Shown here: in pieces, positions 5,503 through 23,772 of the stretch
Layout of the letters: each line of letters starts with the position of its first letter
How positions within the stretch are numbered: position 1 is the first letter of the stretch
Origin: Candidatus Parcubacteria bacterium
GTDB lineage: Bacteria; Patescibacteriota; Minisyncoccia; Minisyncoccales; JAGMDC01
Direction: 5' to 3'
Assembly: GCA_023130975.1 (NCBI GenBank)
Contig: JAGMAD010000001.1
Span: forward strand, 17,238-81,237
Length of the DNA: 64,000 bases
Position numbers and translations under genes: made by a program
Notes under the pieces: model-generated
What the model saw: the letters and a program-made list of their open reading frames with translations, nothing else
What the model was told of the DNA's origin: nothing
Database searches by the model: none

Positions 5503-6549
5503 ATGGCTGATTTGTTTTTTGTTTTAATAATAGTTTTAGTTGTAAGTGGGGGAGTGATACTCTCGGTTTTTTTGATTAGAAAAGAACTAAGGTTATTAAA
5601 AGAAAGAAAAGAAGATGAGCCGGTTTTAACTTTGTTTCAGCAGGAATTAAAAGAAATTCGTGACGAAATAAGAAAATCTGGGGATAAAAGCATGGAATCT
5701 CTTCAAAGCCAATTAAAAGAAAGCAGCAAAATTGTTAAAGATGTTACGAGTCAGTTGGAAAAAATCCACAGCGACCACAAGCATGTTTTGGATGTAAAAT
5801 CCCAATTAGGGAAACTAACAGATGTATTGGCTAATCCAAAGCAAAGGGGAATTCTAGGCGAGTATTTTTTAGAAACCCTATTAAAAAATGTTTTTCAGCC
5901 AAATCAATACAAGCTCCAGTATCAATTTAAAGATGGTGAAATTGTTGACGCAGTAATTTTTATAAAAGACAAAATTGTTCCAATTGATTCCAAATTTTCT
6001 TTGGAAAATTATAATAAAATTTTAGAAGAGAAAGAACCGGCCCAAAGAGAAAAATTGGAAAAAGTATTTAAGCAGGATTTAAAAACCAGAATTGAAGAAA
6101 CAGCTAAATATATTAGGCAAGACGAAGGAACAATGGATTTCGCTTTTATGTTTATACCGTCGGAGGGCATCTATTACGACTTGCTCATTAATCAAATTGG
6201 TGCTATAAAGATAACTACCTATGATTTAATTGAATACGCCTTTAAAGAAAAGCATGTAATTATTGTTTCTCCAACTTCTTTTTACGCTTATTTACAAACC
6301 GTGCTTCAGGGTTTGCGCGCCTTACAGATAGAAGAATCAGCCAAGCAAATTAGAAAGCAAGTAGAAAAACTTCAAAAACATTTATTAAATTATGACAGTT
6401 TTTTACAAAAACTGGGAAACAATCTTAATACCACAGTCAATACTTATAATCAGGCCTACAAAGAATTTGCTAAAATAGATAAAGATGTGGCTCAATTAAC
6501 AGAAGGAGAAAAAACCATTAAACCATTAGAAATAGAGAAAACAGAGTAA
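5503..6549 (+). CDS. rmuC: DNA recombination protein RmuC
   Basis: N-terminal TM helix, long coiled coil, then a RmuC nuclease-like core (RGILGEYFLETLL, DAVIFIKDKIVPIDSKFSLENY, FMFIPSEGIY). Confidence 0.85.
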   Translation: MADLFFVLIIVLVVSGGVILSVFLIRKELRLLKERKEDEPVLTLFQQELKEIRDEIRKSGDKSMESLQSQLKESSKIVKDVTSQLEKIHSDHKHVLDVKSQLGKLTDVLANPKQRGILGEYFLETLLKNVFQPNQYKLQYQFKDGEIVDAVIFIKDKIVPIDSKFSLENYNKILEEKEPAQREKLEKVFKQDLKTRIEETAKYIRQDEGTMDFAFMFIPSEGIYYDLLINQIGAIKITTYDLIEYAFKEKHVIIVSPTSFYAYLQTVLQGLRALQIEESAKQIRKQVEKLQKHLLNYDSFLQKLGNNLNTTVNTYNQAYKEFAKIDKDVAQLTEGEKTIKPLEIEKTE

Positions 6550-16698: not shown

Positions 16699-16836
16699 GC
16701 CCGAGGCAACCTTGTTCTGAGCTCGTCCTGAGCTCGTCGAAGGACTGCCTCGGGCTTTTGTTTTTCATTGATAAAAACCCAAAAATGAGTTAAATTAAAA
16801 GAATGGAGGAAAATAAAAACAGAATAAAAGATTTAG
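16699..16836 (+). repeat. Duplication copy A: GC terminator hairpin, radC promoter and first 11 radC codons
   Basis: gcccgaggc...gcctcgggcttttgttttt, then attgataaaaacccaaaaatgagttaaattaaaagaATGgaggaaaataaaaacagaataaaagattta. Matches 17523-17671. Confidence 0.85.
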
Positions 16837-16861
16837 CGAAAGTTAAAAAATATTTAAAAAT

Positions 16862-17386
16862 ATGGCGACACAAGATTTAGCTAAAAAACCTAAAGACCAA
16901 ATTTATTACGCTTTTATTGATAGCCAGAATCTAAATTTAGGCATCCAAAGTTGTGGCTGGAAATTAGATTTTGCCAGATTTTATATTTATCTTAAGGATA
17001 AGTATAAAGCGGAAAAAGCGTTTTTGTTTATTGGTTATGTTGCCGGCAATGAGGCACTATACACCTTTCTACAAAAAACAGGATATATTGTTATATTTAA
17101 GCCAACATTAGAATACAAAAAGGACGATGTAGTGCATACCAAAGGCAATGTTGACGCTGAATTAGTTTTACACACAATGATAGAATACCCAAATTATGAT
17201 AAAGCGGTTATCGTTTCTGGCGATGGTGATTTTCACTGCTTAATTGAATATTTAGAACAAAAAAGAAAATTGGGACGAGTTATTATTCCGAACAGAAAGA
17301 GTTATTCTCAGCTTCTCTGGAAATTCAAAAAATATATGGATTTTATGAATAATTTAAGAAATAAACTTGAAAGACACAACAAATAA
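16862..17386 (+). CDS. NYN (LabA-like, PIN-superfamily) domain protein, copy 1
   Basis: YAFIDSQNLNLG, FLFIGY, GNVDAELVLHTM, VIVSGDGDFHCLIEYL. Paralogue of 21828-22346. Confidence 0.8.
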   Translation: MATQDLAKKPKDQIYYAFIDSQNLNLGIQSCGWKLDFARFYIYLKDKYKAEKAFLFIGYVAGNEALYTFLQKTGYIVIFKPTLEYKKDDVVHTKGNVDAELVLHTMIEYPNYDKAVIVSGDGDFHCLIEYLEQKRKLGRVIIPNRKSYSQLLWKFKKYMDFMNNLRNKLERHNK

Positions 17387-17440
17387 AAAAAGGGGTGTCG
17401 CTTTAAGGACGAAACCTTAAAGACTTTTCCCCTTCGTGAT
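17385..17440 (-). ncRNA. Candidate ~55-nt hairpin RNA convergent on NYN copy 1
   Basis: Bounded by the promoter at 17447-17474 and a hairpin plus U run (GAAGGGG..CUUUAAGG-UUUCGU-CCUUAAAG..CCCCUUUUUUU). Start is approximate. Confidence 0.4.
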
Positions 17441-17446
17441 ATATTA

Positions 17447-17474
17447 AGTATAGCAAACTGACACCCCTTGTCAA
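17447..17474 (-). promoter_or_regulatory. Sigma70-like promoter TTGACA-16-TATACT on the minus strand
   Basis: -35 at 17469-17474 and -10 at 17447-17452, read on the minus strand. Confidence 0.5.
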
Positions 17475-17522
17475 GTGGAAAATTACACTTAACCAAAAAA
17501 GAAAATAAAACTTGAATTAGTT

Positions 17523-17671
17523 TGCCCGAGGCGATTGCCTCGGGCTTTTGTTTTTGATTGCTATTGAGTACCAAAAAAACCTGTCCTGAGCCTGTCGAAG
17601 GAATTGATAAAAACCCAAAAATGAGTTAAATTAAAGTAATGGAGGAAAATAAAAACAGAATAAAGGACTTA
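17523..17671 (+). repeat. Duplication copy B: terminator hairpin plus the functional radC promoter and 5' end
   Basis: TTGATA (17604-17609), 17 nt, TAAATT (17627-17632), 6 nt, ATG 17639. Differs from copy A by two synonymous changes in the 11 shared codons. Confidence 0.85.
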
Positions 17672-18325
17672 CCCAAAGTAGAACGGCCGAGAGAGAAATT
17701 AATTTTGAAAGGGCCCGAAAATTTAAAAGATGAAGAACTTCTGGCAATTTTGCTTCGGACTGGCAGGGAAGGCAAAAATGTTTTAGATTTAGCCAAGCAG
17801 ATTTTGAATAAACATTCAAAAAAGCGTTTTTTGAAGATGAGATACGAGGATTTAATAAAAGTGAAAGGAATAAACGAAGCCAAGGCCTGCACAATTCTCG
17901 CCAGTATGGAATTAGTCAAAAGAGCCTTAAAAATCCAGGATGAAACCTTACCAATTATTAATTCTTCTAAAGATGTAATAGCTCAAGCCGTTTATTTGAG
18001 AGATAGAACTCGCGAACACCTAATGACTATTTATCTCAACGCTAGAAATGAGATGGTTTGGAAAAAACAATCGACATTTATTGGCACTTTAAATACCAAT
18101 TTAGTTCATCCCAGAGAAATTTTTCAAGAAGCTTTAAAACACAATGCCGCCTCAGTAATTTTAGTCCACAATCATCCTTCAGGAGATAGCGAGCCATCCC
18201 AAGATGACTTAGAAATAACAAAGAGAATTATTGAAGCCGGCAAAATAATGGGCATAGATGTTTTAGACCACATAATCATCACCAAAACCAAAGCATTCAG
18301 CTTCAAAGAAAAAAAGTTGATATAA
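17639..18325 (+). CDS. radC: RadC-like JAB/MPN domain protein
   Basis: IKDLPKVERPREKL N-terminus, HhH region, JAMM motif HNHPSGDSEPSQDD. Confidence 0.9.
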   Translation: MEENKNRIKDLPKVERPREKLILKGPENLKDEELLAILLRTGREGKNVLDLAKQILNKHSKKRFLKMRYEDLIKVKGINEAKACTILASMELVKRALKIQDETLPIINSSKDVIAQAVYLRDRTREHLMTIYLNARNEMVWKKQSTFIGTLNTNLVHPREIFQEALKHNAASVILVHNHPSGDSEPSQDDLEITKRIIEAGKIMGIDVLDHIIITKTKAFSFKEKKLI

Positions 18326-18360
18326 TAAACAAAATCCAAAACTAGAAATATATTAAAACT

Positions 18361-18717
18361 ATGTCAGATATAAAAAACCTAACAGAAAAAATCATAAAAT
18401 TCAGGGATGAACGCGATTGGAAACAATTCAATAATCCTAAAGATGTGGCTTTATCTTTACTTTTAGAAGCAACGGAAGTTTTGGAACATTTTCAGTGGAA
18501 GAATCCAGAAGAAATTGCAGAATATATAAAAACCAACCAAAATGAAATTGGGGAAGAATTGGCTGATGTTCTGTATTGGATTTTATTGATGAGTCATGAT
18601 CTCGAGTTGGATATCTTAGATGTGCTTGAGAAGAAAATTCAAAAAAATCAAAAAAATATCCCATTAAGAAAGCCAAAGGTAATCACACTAAATATAATAA
18701 ATTGTAACTATGCGTAA
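18361..18717 (+). CDS. MazG-like all-alpha nucleotide pyrophosphohydrolase
   Basis: FRDERDWKQFNNPKDVALSLLLEATEVLEHFQW ... GEELADVLYWILLMS (EExxE...D metal-binding helices). Confidence 0.8.
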   Translation: MSDIKNLTEKIIKFRDERDWKQFNNPKDVALSLLLEATEVLEHFQWKNPEEIAEYIKTNQNEIGEELADVLYWILLMSHDLELDILDVLEKKIQKNQKNIPLRKPKVITLNIINCNYA

Positions 18718-19855
18718 TATATTTATACTTTATATGCCGCCGGGTAACAGTGAAGTAATGGTACACTATGAAGATACTATTAAGAATAAAGTTCCGCAGG
18801 AACGGATCTTTAAGTATTTGGATTTTAATTTACAAAATAGGTTAAAAAATGTTTTTAGTAACAGATCTATTGCTGTGTGGGGATCTAGAGATTCTAGTGC
18901 TAATCGTTCGCGTTTCGAAAAAATGCAAATAGGGGACGATATATTAATCGTAGAGGGCGAAATAATCAAACTGATGGGAAAAGTGGCAGCCAAAGTAATT
19001 AGCCCTAATTTGTCGTGCGAGCTTTGGAAAAATTTAAGAGGGGAATCAACAGAGGGATGGAACCTTATTTATTTTATCGCTAACCCACTTGAGATTAATC
19101 TACCATTCAATGAATTTAAGAAGATATTTGGTTACAAACCAAGTTGGAACTTGCGTGGTTTTACGAATATTTCTGATGATAGGCTTGAGGAATTTTATGA
19201 TAAATATGATGACCTTTATTCAATTTTGCAAAAGATAAAAGGCGGAGAAAAAATTGAACAAAAACTTGAGCCAGAGTTTATCAGGGAAAAAGAAATAGAG
19301 AAAACCAGATTAGAGACGGAAGATATAGATGACATTCTGAATAATAAGGAACTCTCCGAACATATAAAAATGCAATGGAAGCTTATCCGACTTGGGTTGA
19401 AAGCTGACTCCAAGGTTTGGATTCCACGAAATGATCAGTCAAGAATAGAAAAGCAATTTGGCTTTAGGGATTTTGAGAAACAATTTGCATCTGGTATAGA
19501 TGTACCTGTGCAATATGTTGAGAATATTGATGTGGTGTGGAAGGAGGAATTTCGTATCCATGCAGCCTTCGAAATAGAGAATACAACTGCAATATATTCT
19601 GGCTTACTTCGTTTTTCTGATTTAAAAATTATAGCCCCTAACAGCCCGTATCCATTGTTTATAGTGGCTCCATTATCAAAGAAGAACCGTGTTTTTCAAC
19701 AAGTGAAGAGGCCGACATTCCGAGAACTTGGCTTTGACAAGGAAGTGCGTTACCTTGCTTATGAAGTAGTTAATGAAATTGACAAGTTTTTTGATAAATC
19801 AAAGAAGGGACTAAATGTTGAATTATTAGTAGGCAAGTCGGAAAAGGCAAGCTAG
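18710..19855 (+). CDS. Hypothetical protein, possible modification-sensing nuclease (weak call)
   Basis: Overlaps mazG-like by 8 nt. The N-terminal half looks like a small beta-barrel (AVWGSR...GDDILIVEGEIIKLMGKV). The C-terminal half has IDVVW...AAFEIENTTAIYSGLLRFSDL, reminiscent of a restriction-endonuclease-like core. No firm family. Confidence 0.3.
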   Translation: MRNIFILYMPPGNSEVMVHYEDTIKNKVPQERIFKYLDFNLQNRLKNVFSNRSIAVWGSRDSSANRSRFEKMQIGDDILIVEGEIIKLMGKVAAKVISPNLSCELWKNLRGESTEGWNLIYFIANPLEINLPFNEFKKIFGYKPSWNLRGFTNISDDRLEEFYDKYDDLYSILQKIKGGEKIEQKLEPEFIREKEIEKTRLETEDIDDILNNKELSEHIKMQWKLIRLGLKADSKVWIPRNDQSRIEKQFGFRDFEKQFASGIDVPVQYVENIDVVWKEEFRIHAAFEIENTTAIYSGLLRFSDLKIIAPNSPYPLFIVAPLSKKNRVFQQVKRPTFRELGFDKEVRYLAYEVVNEIDKFFDKSKKGLNVELLVGKSEKAS

Positions 19856-19937
19856 CTAATTAGCTAGCTGTTTTAATTTGTAGTTTTCACTAAGCGTCTG
19901 CAAAAAGGTCAAAGAATACTAAAACCAGATTGATAAA

Positions 19938-19997
19938 ATGGTATATAAACTTTACGGCTTAACAAAGGAGAAAATTAAAATTGTTGAGCAAAAATAA
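19938..19997 (+). pseudogene. Orphan C-terminal tail of a type IIG/RM-type DNA methyltransferase-like gene
   Basis: Encodes (QIDK)MVYKLYGLTKEKIKIVEQK*. This is the stereotyped ..lVYeLYGLTeeEIkiVE end of such enzymes, preceded by in-frame stops. Confidence 0.5.
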
Positions 19998-20046
19998 AAA
20001 GATGAATAAGGAGTTTTATAATTTTTAAATAATTAAAATAAAATTT

Positions 20047-21726
20047 ATGGCTACTTATCAAGATTTTTCTTTAATTAAAAAAGAGGTTGAGTTTGTTAAA
20101 AAAAGAAATGATATAGATAAATTATCTATGGCTTTTATTTTTATGGTCCTAGAGAAATTATATCCAGATATAGAACCTTTTGAGAATATTACTGATGACA
20201 CAAGAGATTTAAGTGTAGATGCTTATTATATTGATAAAAATACGAAAACAATAAATATTTTTCAATTCAAATATACTGAAAATTTTAATACAGCAAGAAA
20301 TAAAAACGCTTTAAAAGAAAAAGAAATAAACGATTTTATTATAAAATTAAAGTATATTTGGGATAGGGACGAGGAATTTATTAAAAAAGCAAATCATAAA
20401 TTAAAAGACGCAATTAAGGAAATTTGGTCAGCATTTGAAGATGGATATACTAAAACAAATATTTACTTTGTTTCTAATTATAAAGATACAATTAATGGAG
20501 GAAATATTAAGGAAATTCAAAAAAAACTTAAAAATGAATTTAGAGGAAAATTAAAAATATTATCTTTAAATGATTTAATAAAGGTTTTTATAAAAGAAGA
20601 GTTTTCTCCAGTAGATATTAAATTACAGTTAAAGGGTAAAAATTACTTTGAAGAATCAACCGGTGATGTCAGAGCGTTGATTTCAGAAGTAAATGCGTTA
20701 AATTTTTTAAAATCAATTTTAGATGAAAATGATAATTTAATTGAAGATGTGTTTAATGAAAATATTAGGGTTTATTTGCGTTCCAATACAAAAATAAATA
20801 AACAGATATATAATTCTATTGAAAGCAAAAGTAATTATAAATTTTTTTATTACAACAATGGCATTACTGCTATTTGTGATAATTTTGAACACAATTTTTC
20901 TGATAGTCCAATTGTTAATATGGATAATTTTCAAATTGTTAATGGTGGCCAAACAATGCATGCTATTTACGAAGCCTATAAAAATGGATTACAGGATAAT
21001 GTAGGAAATATTTATTTACTTTTAAGAGTTTATGAGGTTAAAAAAAATAGGGAAATTGGTCAAGATATAGCAAGATTTACAAACACTCAAAATCCTGTAA
21101 AAAATAGAGATATAATGTCAAATGATATGATTCAGGTTAAATTACAAAAAGAATTAAGAAAAGAAGGATTTTTTTATGAAAGGAAGAAATACGAATTCAG
21201 AGATCAAAAAATTGGTAATGATAAAAAAGTAGATGCAGAAAAATTAGGACAATCAATCCTTGCTTTTTATATTGACAAACCGGGTTCTGCCAAAAATAAG
21301 AAGCAAGAAATTTTTGGAAATTTTTATAATAGTATTTTTGATGAAAGCAGAATAAATAGCGATTTTGTTCTATTACCCTATCTTTTATATAAAAAGATAG
21401 ATAACGATGTTAGAGAATTTAAAGTAGAACTAAAAAGATTAGAAAAGGCGGGAAAAACGGAAAAAATGAAAACAAAAATAGAAAGAAATGGATTTTTAAA
21501 TTATGCACATTATTATTTATTATTTACATTAAAAGTATTAGCTGATAAGAACAACATTTTGTTTGAAAAGGCAAATATTACAAAAATATTTGAGAATTAC
21601 AATAAGGCAAAAGATATATTACGTAAGATAGTTGATAAGGAAAAAAAGAATCCAAAATTTTCCATGCCCTATCTTTTTAAAACAGACGATCTTGTAAAAA
21701 AGATAAAAGACAAAATTGATAAATAG
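20047..21726 (+). CDS. AIPR (abortive-infection phage resistance) family protein
   Basis: YYNNGITAICD and FQIVNGGQTMHAIY blocks as I recall for the AIPR family. 559 aa, very AT-rich. Confidence 0.55.
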   Translation: MATYQDFSLIKKEVEFVKKRNDIDKLSMAFIFMVLEKLYPDIEPFENITDDTRDLSVDAYYIDKNTKTINIFQFKYTENFNTARNKNALKEKEINDFIIKLKYIWDRDEEFIKKANHKLKDAIKEIWSAFEDGYTKTNIYFVSNYKDTINGGNIKEIQKKLKNEFRGKLKILSLNDLIKVFIKEEFSPVDIKLQLKGKNYFEESTGDVRALISEVNALNFLKSILDENDNLIEDVFNENIRVYLRSNTKINKQIYNSIESKSNYKFFYYNNGITAICDNFEHNFSDSPIVNMDNFQIVNGGQTMHAIYEAYKNGLQDNVGNIYLLLRVYEVKKNREIGQDIARFTNTQNPVKNRDIMSNDMIQVKLQKELRKEGFFYERKKYEFRDQKIGNDKKVDAEKLGQSILAFYIDKPGSAKNKKQEIFGNFYNSIFDESRINSDFVLLPYLLYKKIDNDVREFKVELKRLEKAGKTEKMKTKIERNGFLNYAHYYLLFTLKVLADKNNILFEKANITKIFENYNKAKDILRKIVDKEKKNPKFSMPYLFKTDDLVKKIKDKIDK

Positions 21727-21827: not shown

Positions 21828-22346
21828 ATGGAAAAACAAGAAAGCAATTTTGCGTTTATTGACAGTCAAAACCTTAATTTAGGAATTCAAAACTTGGGCT
21901 GGAAATTGAATTACAGAAGATTTAGAGTTTATTTAAAAGAGAAATATAAAGTATCTATAGCTTATTTGTTTATCGGCTATATTCCAGCTAATCAAGACTT
22001 ATATTCTTCATTGCAAGAAGCCGGGTATGTTTTGGTTTTCAAGCCGACGTTGCCTGATAAGAATGGAGAGGTAAAGGGTAACGTGGACGCAGATTTGGTT
22101 TTACAGGTAATGATTGATTATAAGAAATATAACAAAGCTATAATTGTTACAAGCGACGGAGATTTTTATTCTTTAGTTAAATATTTATACAAAAATGATA
22201 AACTTAGATGCGTGATAAGTCCATATATTAAAACTTGTTCGGTTTTGTTAAAAAAAACAGCTAAAGAAAAAATTGTTTTTATAGAAAATTTGCGTAAAAA
22301 ACTTGAATATAAAATGAAAAAGCACCGCGTAAGGACAAAACCTTAA
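21828..22346 (+). CDS. NYN (LabA-like) domain protein, copy 2
   Basis: FAFIDSQNLNLG, YLFIGY, GNVDADLVLQVM, IIVTSDGDFYSLVKYL. Collinear with copy 1. Confidence 0.8.
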   Translation: MEKQESNFAFIDSQNLNLGIQNLGWKLNYRRFRVYLKEKYKVSIAYLFIGYIPANQDLYSSLQEAGYVLVFKPTLPDKNGEVKGNVDADLVLQVMIDYKKYNKAIIVTSDGDFYSLVKYLYKNDKLRCVISPYIKTCSVLLKKTAKEKIVFIENLRKKLEYKMKKHRVRTKP

Positions 22347-22370
22347 AAGGTGCTTTTTCGTATGTATTCT
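22316..22370 (-). ncRNA. Candidate ~55-nt hairpin RNA convergent on NYN copy 2
   Basis: Promoter at 22377-22404, then GAAAAAGCACC-UUUUAAGG-UUUUGU-CCUUACGC-GGUGCUUUUU. Overlaps the last ~10 codons of the NYN gene antisense. Confidence 0.4.
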
Positions 22371-22376
22371 ATTATC

Positions 22377-22404
22377 AATATAGCAAACCACAGACCTTTG
22401 TCAA
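22377..22404 (-). promoter_or_regulatory. Sigma70-like promoter TTGACA-16-TATATT on the minus strand
   Basis: -35 at 22399-22404, -10 at 22377-22382. Same layout and same flanking gtttgctata as at 17447-17474. Confidence 0.5.
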
Positions 22405-23304: not shown

Positions 23305-23772
23305 TCAAGAAATAAGGTTGTCTGTATTTTTTGATAAAAAAAAGAAAGGATGCTAGAGAAGGCATCCTTATAATAATAACGATATAATATCATTCATTCG
23401 GTGAAAACCTCTGGCTGGTTCCCAATTCTCCCTCCGCAACATTCGGAGGAAAGGCCAAAGACAAACTTCTTAATAATAAATGTGAGTACAATATATAAGG
23501 AAATGAGTGAAATAGATGAAAAAGATAAAAAGAAAATTAAGAAGTTTTTTAGTGAGCCCGCAGTTAAAAATTGTAATGAACTATGTAATGAACTATCCTC
23601 TATCAATTAGATGGTGTCTAACTGATAGAGGTTGAGAAAAAGATTTCTTTTTCCTTTTCTCTCCATTTCCATAATAGCACAATAGATTTTCTTGTCAAGG
23701 GCTTTTTGTGAAAATTCAAAAATCGCGAGCCACTCTTTTGCCCACGACGATTTTTTGGTAGAATAGGATAAT

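Follow-up and report, generated by a model that had tools for sequence, protein, structure and literature searches.

Predicted small RNA genes convergent with LabA-like NYN genes in Parcubacteria and other bacterial phyla, with copies lacking NYN in phages

A stretch of 64,000 nucleotides from a Candidatus Parcubacteria bacterium (contig JAGMAD010000001.1; hereafter the window, in whose own numbering coordinates are given) encodes two LabA-like NYN proteins, NYN1 and NYN2, predicted nucleases of the PIN-like fold. Each gene ends on a hairpin that an earlier note had assigned to the opposite strand, as the terminator of a convergent small RNA with its own promoter. The question raised by this locus is whether such an RNA gene is genuine and what it would do for the nuclease gene that it faces. 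The proposed two-component module of an NYN gene and a convergent small RNA proved to be conserved, as it was present at 79 of 80 NYN loci, and its promoter, its covariation and its G-U bias all indicate that the terminator serves the small RNA.

The small RNA units of the window

On the minus strand at 17386–17474, a near-consensus sigma-70 promoter, a structured RNA of ~55 nt and an intrinsic terminator follow one another and abut the stop codon of NYN1 (gene at 16862–17386, plus strand; stop codon TAA at 17384–17386), exactly as the earlier note had described. The promoter is made of TTGACA (17474–17469), a 16-nt spacer and TATACT (17452–17447), the latter within an extended −10 element, TGcTATACT (17447–17455). 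With 11 of 12 consensus matches in addition to the TG, it was among the three best promoter-like sites in 10 kb in the promoter scan. Six nucleotides after the −10, the minus strand reads AUCACGAAGGGGAAAAGUCUUUAAGGUUUCGUCCUUAAAGCGACACCCCUUUUUUU, and transcription is predicted to start there from this strong promoter, at ~17440, giving a putative small RNA 1 (17386–17440) with its 5′ end placed by promoter geometry and its 3′ end in the U-tract.

The predicted RNA folds at −20.3 kcal/mol (z = −4.0), a value equalled by none of 200 shuffles, and R1, the covariance model of the family introduced below, matches it at 17384–17440 (27.2 bits, E = 4.7e-6). It begins with a single-stranded tail, AUCACGA (17434–17440), which is conserved across the family, and continues into an outer stem, P1, whose arms GAAGGGG (17429–17435) and CCCCUUU (17389–17395) pair in the minimum free energy fold and covary at every pair across the family. 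Within P1 lies an inner helix (CUUUAAGG/CCUUAAAG, 17401–17422, with 17415–17422 paired to 17401–17408), supported by the fold and by covariation and capped by the apical loop UUUCGU (17409–17414); in most relatives, an A-rich internal loop divides this helix into P2 and P3. The terminator U-tract, read directly as the complement of the plus-strand A-run at 17385–17391, extends over the two final bases of the NYN1 TAA. Beyond the hairpin, the NYN strand continues with UUCGUGAU and no U-run, in agreement with what had been claimed for this copy.

NYN2 (21828–22346, plus strand, 172 aa, 55% identical to NYN1) has its stop codon within a hairpin as well, and the second module reported there was recovered with its conserved inner core and its GCACC/GGUGC outer stem. 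This unit 2 (22311–22404, minus strand) comprises a TTGACA-16-TATATT promoter (22404–22377) and a predicted RNA of ~60 nt (about 22370 to 22311) with the hairpin AAAAAGCACC...GGUGCUUUUU, which has T-runs on both strands. The core TAAGGNNNNNNCCTTA (TAAGG-N6-CCTTA) follows each of the two NYN genes and is found nowhere else in the 64 kb, where 0.18 occurrences would be expected. Since unit 2 scored only 11.5 bits with R1, below significance, its membership rests on its architecture and on the shared TAAGGNNNNNNCCTTA core, and we regard it as a probable divergent subtype. Some NYN genes elsewhere (L039:3480–3583, L059:3464–3568 and L186) have two hairpin units in a row, with an NYN2-type hairpin (AAAAAACCCAUUUAAGGACAGAACCUUAAAGGGUUUUUU) at the stop codon and then a complete major-type small RNA with its promoter.

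Both proteins match the Pfam family NYN (PF01936; 47.9 bits for NYN1 and 45.7 bits for NYN2, cut-off 24.2). NYN1, a 174-aa protein that is 100% identical to a Ca. Parcubacteria protein at NCBI, consists of this single domain in Pfam, with no obvious additional RNA-binding domain. Among 120 homologues, the acidic residues expected of a PIN-like active site (the D of FIDSQN, the D of GNVDAEL and the D-G-D of SGDGDF) are at least 95% conserved, which predicts an active nuclease. The family is very large and unusually conserved (at least 8000 matches, the best 120 of them at 70–85% identity); PADLOC gave only a weak match to its 'NYN' model. The sole sequence match in the PDB, and thus the nearest solved structure, is 2qip (VPA0982; E = 1.6e-7). 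With this protein and with Synechococcus LabA, the NYN proteins studied here have the Pfam domain in common, and they differ in forming a short subfamily (~165 aa) with a conserved C-terminal tail (iPN..YS.LL.KF...L..KL) and an RNA partner. The LabA-like NYN family (COG1432) is listed as 'function unknown' in a 2017 survey of the PIN superfamily, which names no RNA partner for it (PMC5499597).

Recurrence, strand and sequence constraint

The check that the earlier note had proposed, conservation of the module beside NYN homologues elsewhere, came out in its favour. Keeping one genome per species, we collected 80 NYN loci from at least 10 phyla, and the only one at which the convergent unit was not found (L074) ends at a contig edge. 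The genomes of the Candidate Phyla Radiation (CPR) that had been suggested as the search field proved right for the Patescibacteria lineages and too narrow for Planctomycetota, Omnitrophota, Elusimicrobia, Melainabacteria, Actinomycetes and other metagenome-assembled genomes (MAGs), the labels of which also include Scalindua, Planctomycetia, WOR-3 and Deltaproteobacteria. Read opposite to NYN, the flank runs through TTGACA, ~17 nt, TATAAT, ~6 nt, ATCACGA(U)G, an outer stem of 6–7 bp, an inner hairpin with the core AAGG-(U)UYGU-CC, the outer 3′ arm and a U-run.

The covariance model R1 was built from 25 well-aligned copies and was run over both strands of 520 kb. At 78 of the 80 loci it found a match, which in every case lay on the strand opposite NYN and abutted the NYN 3′ end, and only four further matches were obtained, all of them weak (13.7–17.8 bits, E 0.035–0.72) and all on the same strand. 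L027 had no R1 match, and its unit is present by eye. An alignment made with MAFFT only mis-registered P1 of the W1 subtype, and the covariance-model-guided alignment was used instead.

The RNA subtypes (W1-type, major, CCAAAGGG-type and GACCAAG-type) follow the protein similarity of the NYN subfamilies. More distant NYN paralogues stand in tandem in L028:495–1100, L008:2394–2920 and L017:3614–4290, and each is faced convergently by a promoter, small RNA and terminator of its own, which differ in sequence and have the same architecture; the RNA of the L017 paralogue, for example, reads 5′-AUCAUCAGGGAG...CUCCCGAUUUUUUUU. Paralogues with different RNAs of their own suggest cognate RNA-protein pairs, and the design of an NYN gene plus a convergent small RNA appears to extend beyond the R1 RNA family.

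Rfam 15 held no family for the small RNA: at the gathering score it found three tRNAs only in the window, and at E ≤ 10 nothing meaningful in 17300–17560. No description of the NYN/small-RNA pair was found in the literature searched (NYN/LabA, RNA antitoxins and structured non-coding RNA motifs). GenBank phages gave no match to the NYN protein or the small RNA, and PLSDB plasmids none to the NYN protein; IMG/VR gave one NYN relative. This absence from the cultured-phage and plasmid collections may explain why the pair has been overlooked.

A hairpin at the 3′ end of a gene could simply be the terminator or the 3′-UTR stabiliser of the NYN mRNA, with a minus-strand promoter that is fortuitous or meant for something else. 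The position of the hairpin would fit this explanation, as would the T-runs on both strands of copy 2. However, the NYN strand continues with AUCGUGAU after the hairpin and has no U-run in almost all loci, and the T-run on the small-RNA strand follows the hairpin in 75 of the 78 modules scanned. A TTGACA-N16–18-TATAAT promoter with at least 10 of 12 matches stands at a fixed distance in 67 of 79 modules (85%), compared to 0.3% among 4000 positions drawn at random from these loci, and usually ~6 nt separate its −10 from the A of ATCACGA. The wobble pairs of P1 (21 G-U versus 3 A-C) also favour the minus-strand reading. Stand-alone copies on the sense strand of phages, described below, and a sequence conservation far beyond what a terminator needs speak against the terminator explanation as well, and we consider it extremely unlikely.

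The structure itself was examined in the model-guided alignment, where 92.8% of the cells are paired, double changes occur in 13 of 13 pairs and 192 cells are compensatory (50 ± 5 in shuffles), figures that lean towards structure because the alignment was fitted to it. When the 3′ partners were slid as a control, pairing went down to 46–69%, and the raw sequences already show the variation of the outer stem (GAGAGGG/CCCUCUC, GACCAAG/CUUGGUC, GGCGAAG/CUUCGCC and GGGG/CCCC). The minus-strand element is thus predicted to be a genuine, independently transcribed small-RNA gene of ~55 nt and not a hairpin of the NYN 3′-UTR.

Three other identities were tried and rejected. The major type can be read as a mini-ORF (AUG-AGA-GGG-CAC-ACC-UAA), but W1 and several other subtypes have no AUG and the frame is not conserved. 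The 'CGAUGAG' before P1 recalls a hammerhead or another self-cleaving ribozyme, but it is followed by U-runs instead of GAAA and no Rfam ribozyme matched. Integron attC sites have the core-site consensus RYYYAAC/GTTRRRY, and on direct reading neither GTTRRRY nor RYYYAAC occurs in W1 or in the consensus hairpin. Within the RNA, a pseudoknot of 4–5 bp between ACGA of the 5′ tail and UCGU of the loop is possible; the loop variants UUAGU, UCCCGU and UUUCGA do not covary with the invariant tail, which weighs against it.

The NYN coding sequence or its stop codon runs into the 3′ part of the RNA in 71 of the 80 loci, by 1–63 nt and often with the stop inside the hairpin. The small RNA is then antisense to the extreme 3′ end of the NYN mRNA, which has no U-run terminator before that point. 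It might be a pure cis-antisense regulator, tuning NYN by pairing with the end of its mRNA, with RNase III cleavage or loss of the stop codon region as the outcome, and by interference between the convergent promoters, in which case NYN would be an ordinary RNase and the RNA would have no antidote or defence role. The convergent overlap, the lack of a plus-strand terminator ahead of it and the strength of the promoter are what such a regulator would show. Most apical loops (UUCG, UUUG, CUCG, UUAG) also fit the YUNR U-turn, a motif typical of fast-pairing antisense RNAs.

Complementarity, however, holds whatever the sequence, and antisense function alone would not constrain the RNA. In 77 sequences that were chosen via the protein and not the RNA, conservation is at least 90% in the 5′ tail (A-U-C-A-C-G-A) and at several positions of the loops. 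Moreover, the whole 57-nt RNA is identical at four loci from four phyla (Gottesmanbacteria, Scalindua, Actinomycetes and Deltaproteobacteria MAGs), while the NYN genes of these loci are 72–82% identical in nucleotides, with a third-position identity of 0.48–0.66 and nearly saturated synonymous sites. Something therefore seems to read the nucleotides of the RNA, and the only conserved candidate reader within the cassette would be the NYN protein.

Cis-antisense regulation leaves this conservation of unpaired bases unexplained, and it gives no role to the orphan and phage copies, which have no NYN gene to act on in cis. The mobile, multi-copy and remnant-leaving behaviour described below also looks selfish rather than housekeeping, and we judge a purely cis-antisense function to be unlikely. 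The cis-encoded RNA partner of the earlier note was therefore right as far as convergence and overlap go; as a solely cis-antisense partner it did not hold, since conserved unpaired bases together with NYN-less phage copies make a pure type I logic insufficient.

RNA copies without NYN and a possible antidote

Viral contigs were screened with a pattern scan followed by a covariance-model check, which covered part of each contig. Sixteen true copies (32–67 bits) were found, none with an NYN gene in the DNA covered, and Rfam 15 found one tRNA only at the phage loci. These copies are intergenic and have the same orientation as the surrounding genes; most have no promoter and many no U-run, and those lacking the promoter retain the 5′ tail. 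Six lie just upstream of a small ORF and terminase genes, and the two contigs checked are tailed phages (L145, with a large terminase, and L084, with a large terminase and a portal). The sense orientation of NYN-less copies points to the small-RNA sense as the functional strand, and their 5′ tail suggests that the tail belongs to the functional RNA and not only to its promoter context.

The metagenome scan gave at least 65 true copies among the matches listed, comprising 35 with a convergent NYN gene (34 abutting it and one, in L223, ~150 nt away), 7 at contig ends and 23 orphans. Orphans make up about a quarter of the metagenome copies among the matches listed. They include NYN remnants (L191, L227/L265) and one case with a distant NYN of 287 aa (L221), the rest being genuine orphans. 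Orphan and phage copies together have 91.7% of their cells paired and 68 compensatory cells, versus 17.5 ± 3.8 in shuffles. At L191:278–500, L227:4358–4600 and L265:1627–1870, an intact small RNA with its promoter lies beside a decayed NYN gene that has been reduced to its C-terminal ~40 aa or to a scrambled 79-aa ORF ending ...KKEGVTFGRNLRCALSS. An intact RNA beside a remnant of the gene is the pattern expected of orphaned antitoxins.

One copy sits, in the same sense as the tRNAs, in a tRNA array (L245, 5906–6344) with the order Thr, Trp, Thr, motif, Asn, Pro and spacers of 0–5 nt. The motif (6134–6189) occupies a tRNA-sized slot between tRNA-Thr (end 6129) and tRNA-Asn (start 6190), so that the flanking tRNAs delimit the boundaries of the RNA independently and tRNA processing would release almost exactly the predicted RNA. 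The neighbouring genes of this array are phage-like (QueF/GTP-cyclohydrolase-like PHROG).

The surroundings of the other orphans are varied. Related tailed-phage contigs (L145:3424–3691, L084, L112, L114, L137, L088, L207 and L243) have the motif just upstream of packaging genes. For L145, L084, L112/L207, L114 and L137, a conserved ORF of 68–85 aa (..IKSLVSGDK.G.I.L.F..) begins no more than a few bases after it and precedes the terminase genes, and for L088 and L243 a ParB-like gene comes first after it; in this position the motif might be a leader or regulatory element. At L119:400–600 and L144:380–560, the Shine-Dalgarno sequence of the following gene lies within UCGUGAUAAGGAGGAG, downstream of the motif, and this stretch could base-pair with the 5′ tail and the CUCCUCCUU ahead of it, which suggests a larger regulatory stem around the motif in this phage. 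Orphans with a promoter and a U-run are also found beside other genes (L185:2984–4220 and L216:2250–3082), a convergent 389-aa DUF1016/YhcG-like gene in one case and a divergent DUF3800-like gene in another, with families assigned by eye.

With moderate confidence, we read the pair as a toxin/antidote module, serving addiction or abortive infection, that mixes features of type I and type III systems and of which the phage copies would be mimics. NYN would be a harmful RNase held in check by the abundant small RNA. The primary mode would be type III-like, with the RNA binding or occupying the nuclease directly and sequence-specifically, since the unpaired bases of the RNA are more tightly conserved than the NYN codons and the RNA stands alone in phages. 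Antisense pairing with the 3′ end of the NYN mRNA, along with convergent transcription, would add a second, type I-like layer, and the orphan RNAs of phages would act as antidote mimics that disarm the nuclease. The toxin/antitoxin-like or defence-related label that the earlier note had offered is plausible given the mobile cassette, the defence-island setting, the decayed NYN genes with retained RNA and the phage orphans.

Several observations weigh against the toxin/antidote reading. The NYN proteins are 60–85% identical across phyla, which is unusually conserved for a toxin; their neighbours are often housekeeping genes, with defence genes in the minority; and the architecture matches neither classical type I nor classical type III. 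As each viral contig was covered in part, a distant NYN may lie elsewhere on the same phage, and the phage copies upstream of terminase could represent a phage regulatory element that NYN cassettes have borrowed. In the orphan sets, ATCACGATG, AAGG and GTCC are invariant in part because the search pattern required them.

The departures from known systems are specific. The type III systems ToxIN, CptIN and TenpIN also pair an endoribonuclease with nothing but a small structured RNA whose sequence itself is conserved, as compact two-component modules on mobile DNA, and phages can carry look-alikes of their antitoxin RNA, as phage ΦTE does with pseudo-ToxI. Their RNA, however, is a co-oriented tandem array upstream in the operon, where the present one is a single convergent unit located downstream with its own promoter; Pfam gave only NYN for the partner, a PIN-like fold in place of a ToxN/AbiQ, CptN or TenpN toxin, and RNA-protein binding is here suggested by the sequence conservation of the RNA and by its orphan copies.

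Among type I loci, par Fst/RNA II (pAD1), TxpA/RatA and BsrG/SR4 (B. subtilis) resemble the NYN modules in their strong convergent small RNA overlapping the 3′ end of the toxin mRNA, in the terminator at the end of the toxin gene and in a U-turn-like apical loop. The antisense overlap that defines them is present at the 71 loci given above. Yet their toxins are small (<~60 aa) hydrophobic membrane peptides, and the NYN partner is a soluble enzyme of 165–175 aa (160–180 aa at the widest); the overlap of the NYN modules is short, unpaired bases of the RNA are under sequence selection, and the RNA is also found without the gene. SymE/SymR and RalR/RalA offer the likeness of a nucleic-acid-cleaving protein under a cis-encoded small RNA, but they have other folds, no sequence relationship and narrow lineages as opposed to the cross-phylum spread seen here, and in the case of SymR the overlap lies at the 5′ end of symE.

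VapBC and other PIN-domain toxins of type II have the PIN-like, metal-dependent RNase fold and form compact, mobile, multi-copy modules, but VapC is neutralised by a protein antitoxin encoded upstream. No conserved neighbour protein that could be such an antitoxin was found at the NYN loci, where flanking genes are heterogeneous. Stand-alone phage copies of a host antidote without its toxin are exemplified by the orphan antitoxin anti-DarTG1 of T4-like phages (PMC11825919), which differs in being a protein enzyme, where the NYN loci would provide an RNA with a putative anti-defence role.

The same evidence could also be read in terms of a ribonucleoprotein effector. NYN would use the RNA as a cofactor, scaffold or guide or would process it as a substrate, and the complex would act on phage transcripts, tRNA or rRNA, with the 5′ tail as a seed or handle. 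An invariant single-stranded tail across phyla would be natural for such a complex, as would RNA subtypes that track NYN subfamilies, distant paralogues with different RNAs of their own, and the presence of the motif within phage transcripts and within a tRNA array. However, no conserved target with complementarity was identified, and the phage RNAs bear the same sense of the motif and not its complement, so they are not guide targets. Loci that have kept the RNA beside an NYN remnant are more easily understood if the RNA is an antidote than if it is a cofactor, and no additional RNA-binding domain is obvious in the single-domain protein of 174 aa. We find this effector improbable.

Few PIN-like nucleases of bacteria are as abundant as the LabA-like NYN proteins, and an obligate RNA partner would give a large subfamily of them a concrete and testable function. 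Should the antidote model be true, the module would be a toxin-antitoxin architecture bridging type I and type III, and the first module for defence or addiction based on RNA that is characteristic of CPR/Patescibacteria and other uncultured lineages. The phage copies would then be the second example, after pseudo-ToxI, of phage RNA mimics directed against host nucleases, one of them in a tRNA array. The small RNA is short, highly conserved and easily synthesised, which makes simple biochemical tests accessible.

Flanking repeats and gene neighbourhood

Together, the NYN gene (~165 aa) and the small RNA appear to form a self-contained cassette of 0.65–1 kb that is mostly promoterless, seems to move horizontally and is present in many bacterial phyla. 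No element or promoter was found conserved upstream of NYN at these loci, where conservation begins ~10 codons before FIDSQN. The NYN1 unit is bracketed by direct repeat copies of ~100–150 nt, detected by repeat search and blastn (repeat families D1, D3 and D8). The left copy (16699–16843, plus strand) contains an upstream terminator, the radC promoter, a ribosome-binding site and the first ~10 radC codons, and the right copy (17524–17679, plus strand) lies at the true radC start (ATG 17639). As the repeat duplicates the radC promoter, NYN1 would be driven by the duplicate while radC keeps its own. The left repeat also opens a short ORF (ATG 16804, MEENKNRIKDL...) that overlaps the NYN1 start at 16862, and NYN1 may be translationally coupled to it. 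No empty-site allele of the NYN1 insertion was found, as the eight contigs with this radC represent one population in which the insertion is present or the contig breaks at the repeat.

Comparable flanking repeats were found at 13 of 74 other loci, versus 0 of 68 and 0 of 62 in shifted controls. They measure 23–139 nt, are 88–100% identical and lie 626–1026 nt apart, and they duplicate host promoters and gene starts. For L007, L021 and L017, one repeat copy stops shortly ahead of the NYN start codon and the other shortly ahead of the downstream gene that was displaced. This duplication of a host promoter and gene start makes the cassette look mobile, and target repeats of this length that duplicate promoters may reflect an unusual mode of insertion.

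One could go further and suppose that the cassette is inserted by the PIN/FEN-like NYN together with the hairpin, in RNA or single-stranded DNA form, which would explain the long and variable target duplications. The repeats themselves would be its traces, with a left copy that ends within a few bases of the NYN start (in the window and at L007, L017 and L021) and, on the other side, a conservation that ends at the −35, from which repeat-flanked cassettes run ~25–190 nt further to the right repeat. The wide spread of the cassette across phyla would follow as well. We know of no NYN or PIN protein that acts as a transposase, however, and the repeats are heterogeneous: some are tandem modules (L008, L028, L017) and one (L064) looks like a tRNA/integrase att repeat, so that recombination can explain them. 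Phage orphans have neither NYN nor repeats, and conservation of the promoter and the U-tract suggests that the product is an RNA. A role as mobility machinery is, to our mind, very unlikely.

More tentatively than for the toxin/antidote reading itself, and with some doubt, we suggest that these elements could make up an unrecognised class of RNA antidotes and nuclease toxins. A single ~55-nt RNA of conserved sequence would neutralise NYN, and a promoter-capturing mini-cassette would insert at the 5′ ends of expressed genes with long target duplications. It would provide abortive infection or addiction in many uncultured phyla, and tailed phages would counter it with the same RNA made from late operons or tRNA arrays.

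The nearest neighbours of NYN genes across the loci include tRNA synthetases, EF-G, Lon, helicases, Cas3/Cas5, methylases and other NYN genes. The two modules of the window enclose a RadC/JAB gene (17639–18325), a MazG-like gene (18361–18717), a restriction-enzyme-like gene (18710–19855; PADLOC REase_II, Pfam NmeDI_C) and an AbiU/AIPR gene (20047–21726), and this interval (17639–21726) looks like a defence island from its predicted genes.

Two further features of the window were noted. An element of ~20 nt, GTCCTGAGC(T/C)(C/T)GTCGAAGGA, recurs at 16714–16744, where it occurs twice, 11 nt apart, in the loop of the terminator upstream of NYN1, and at 17583–17602 in the right repeat, where its position is a different one; it could be a small insertion or repeat element. 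Finally, a third near-consensus promoter was seen on the minus strand (TTGACA-16-TATTAT with TG, 23698–23671), with a terminator ~300 nt on (23369–23346). The minus strand at 23346–23698 contains no convincing ORF and has no Rfam match, and it is antisense to a plus-strand ORF of 69 aa (23401–23610), so it may be another non-coding or antisense RNA.

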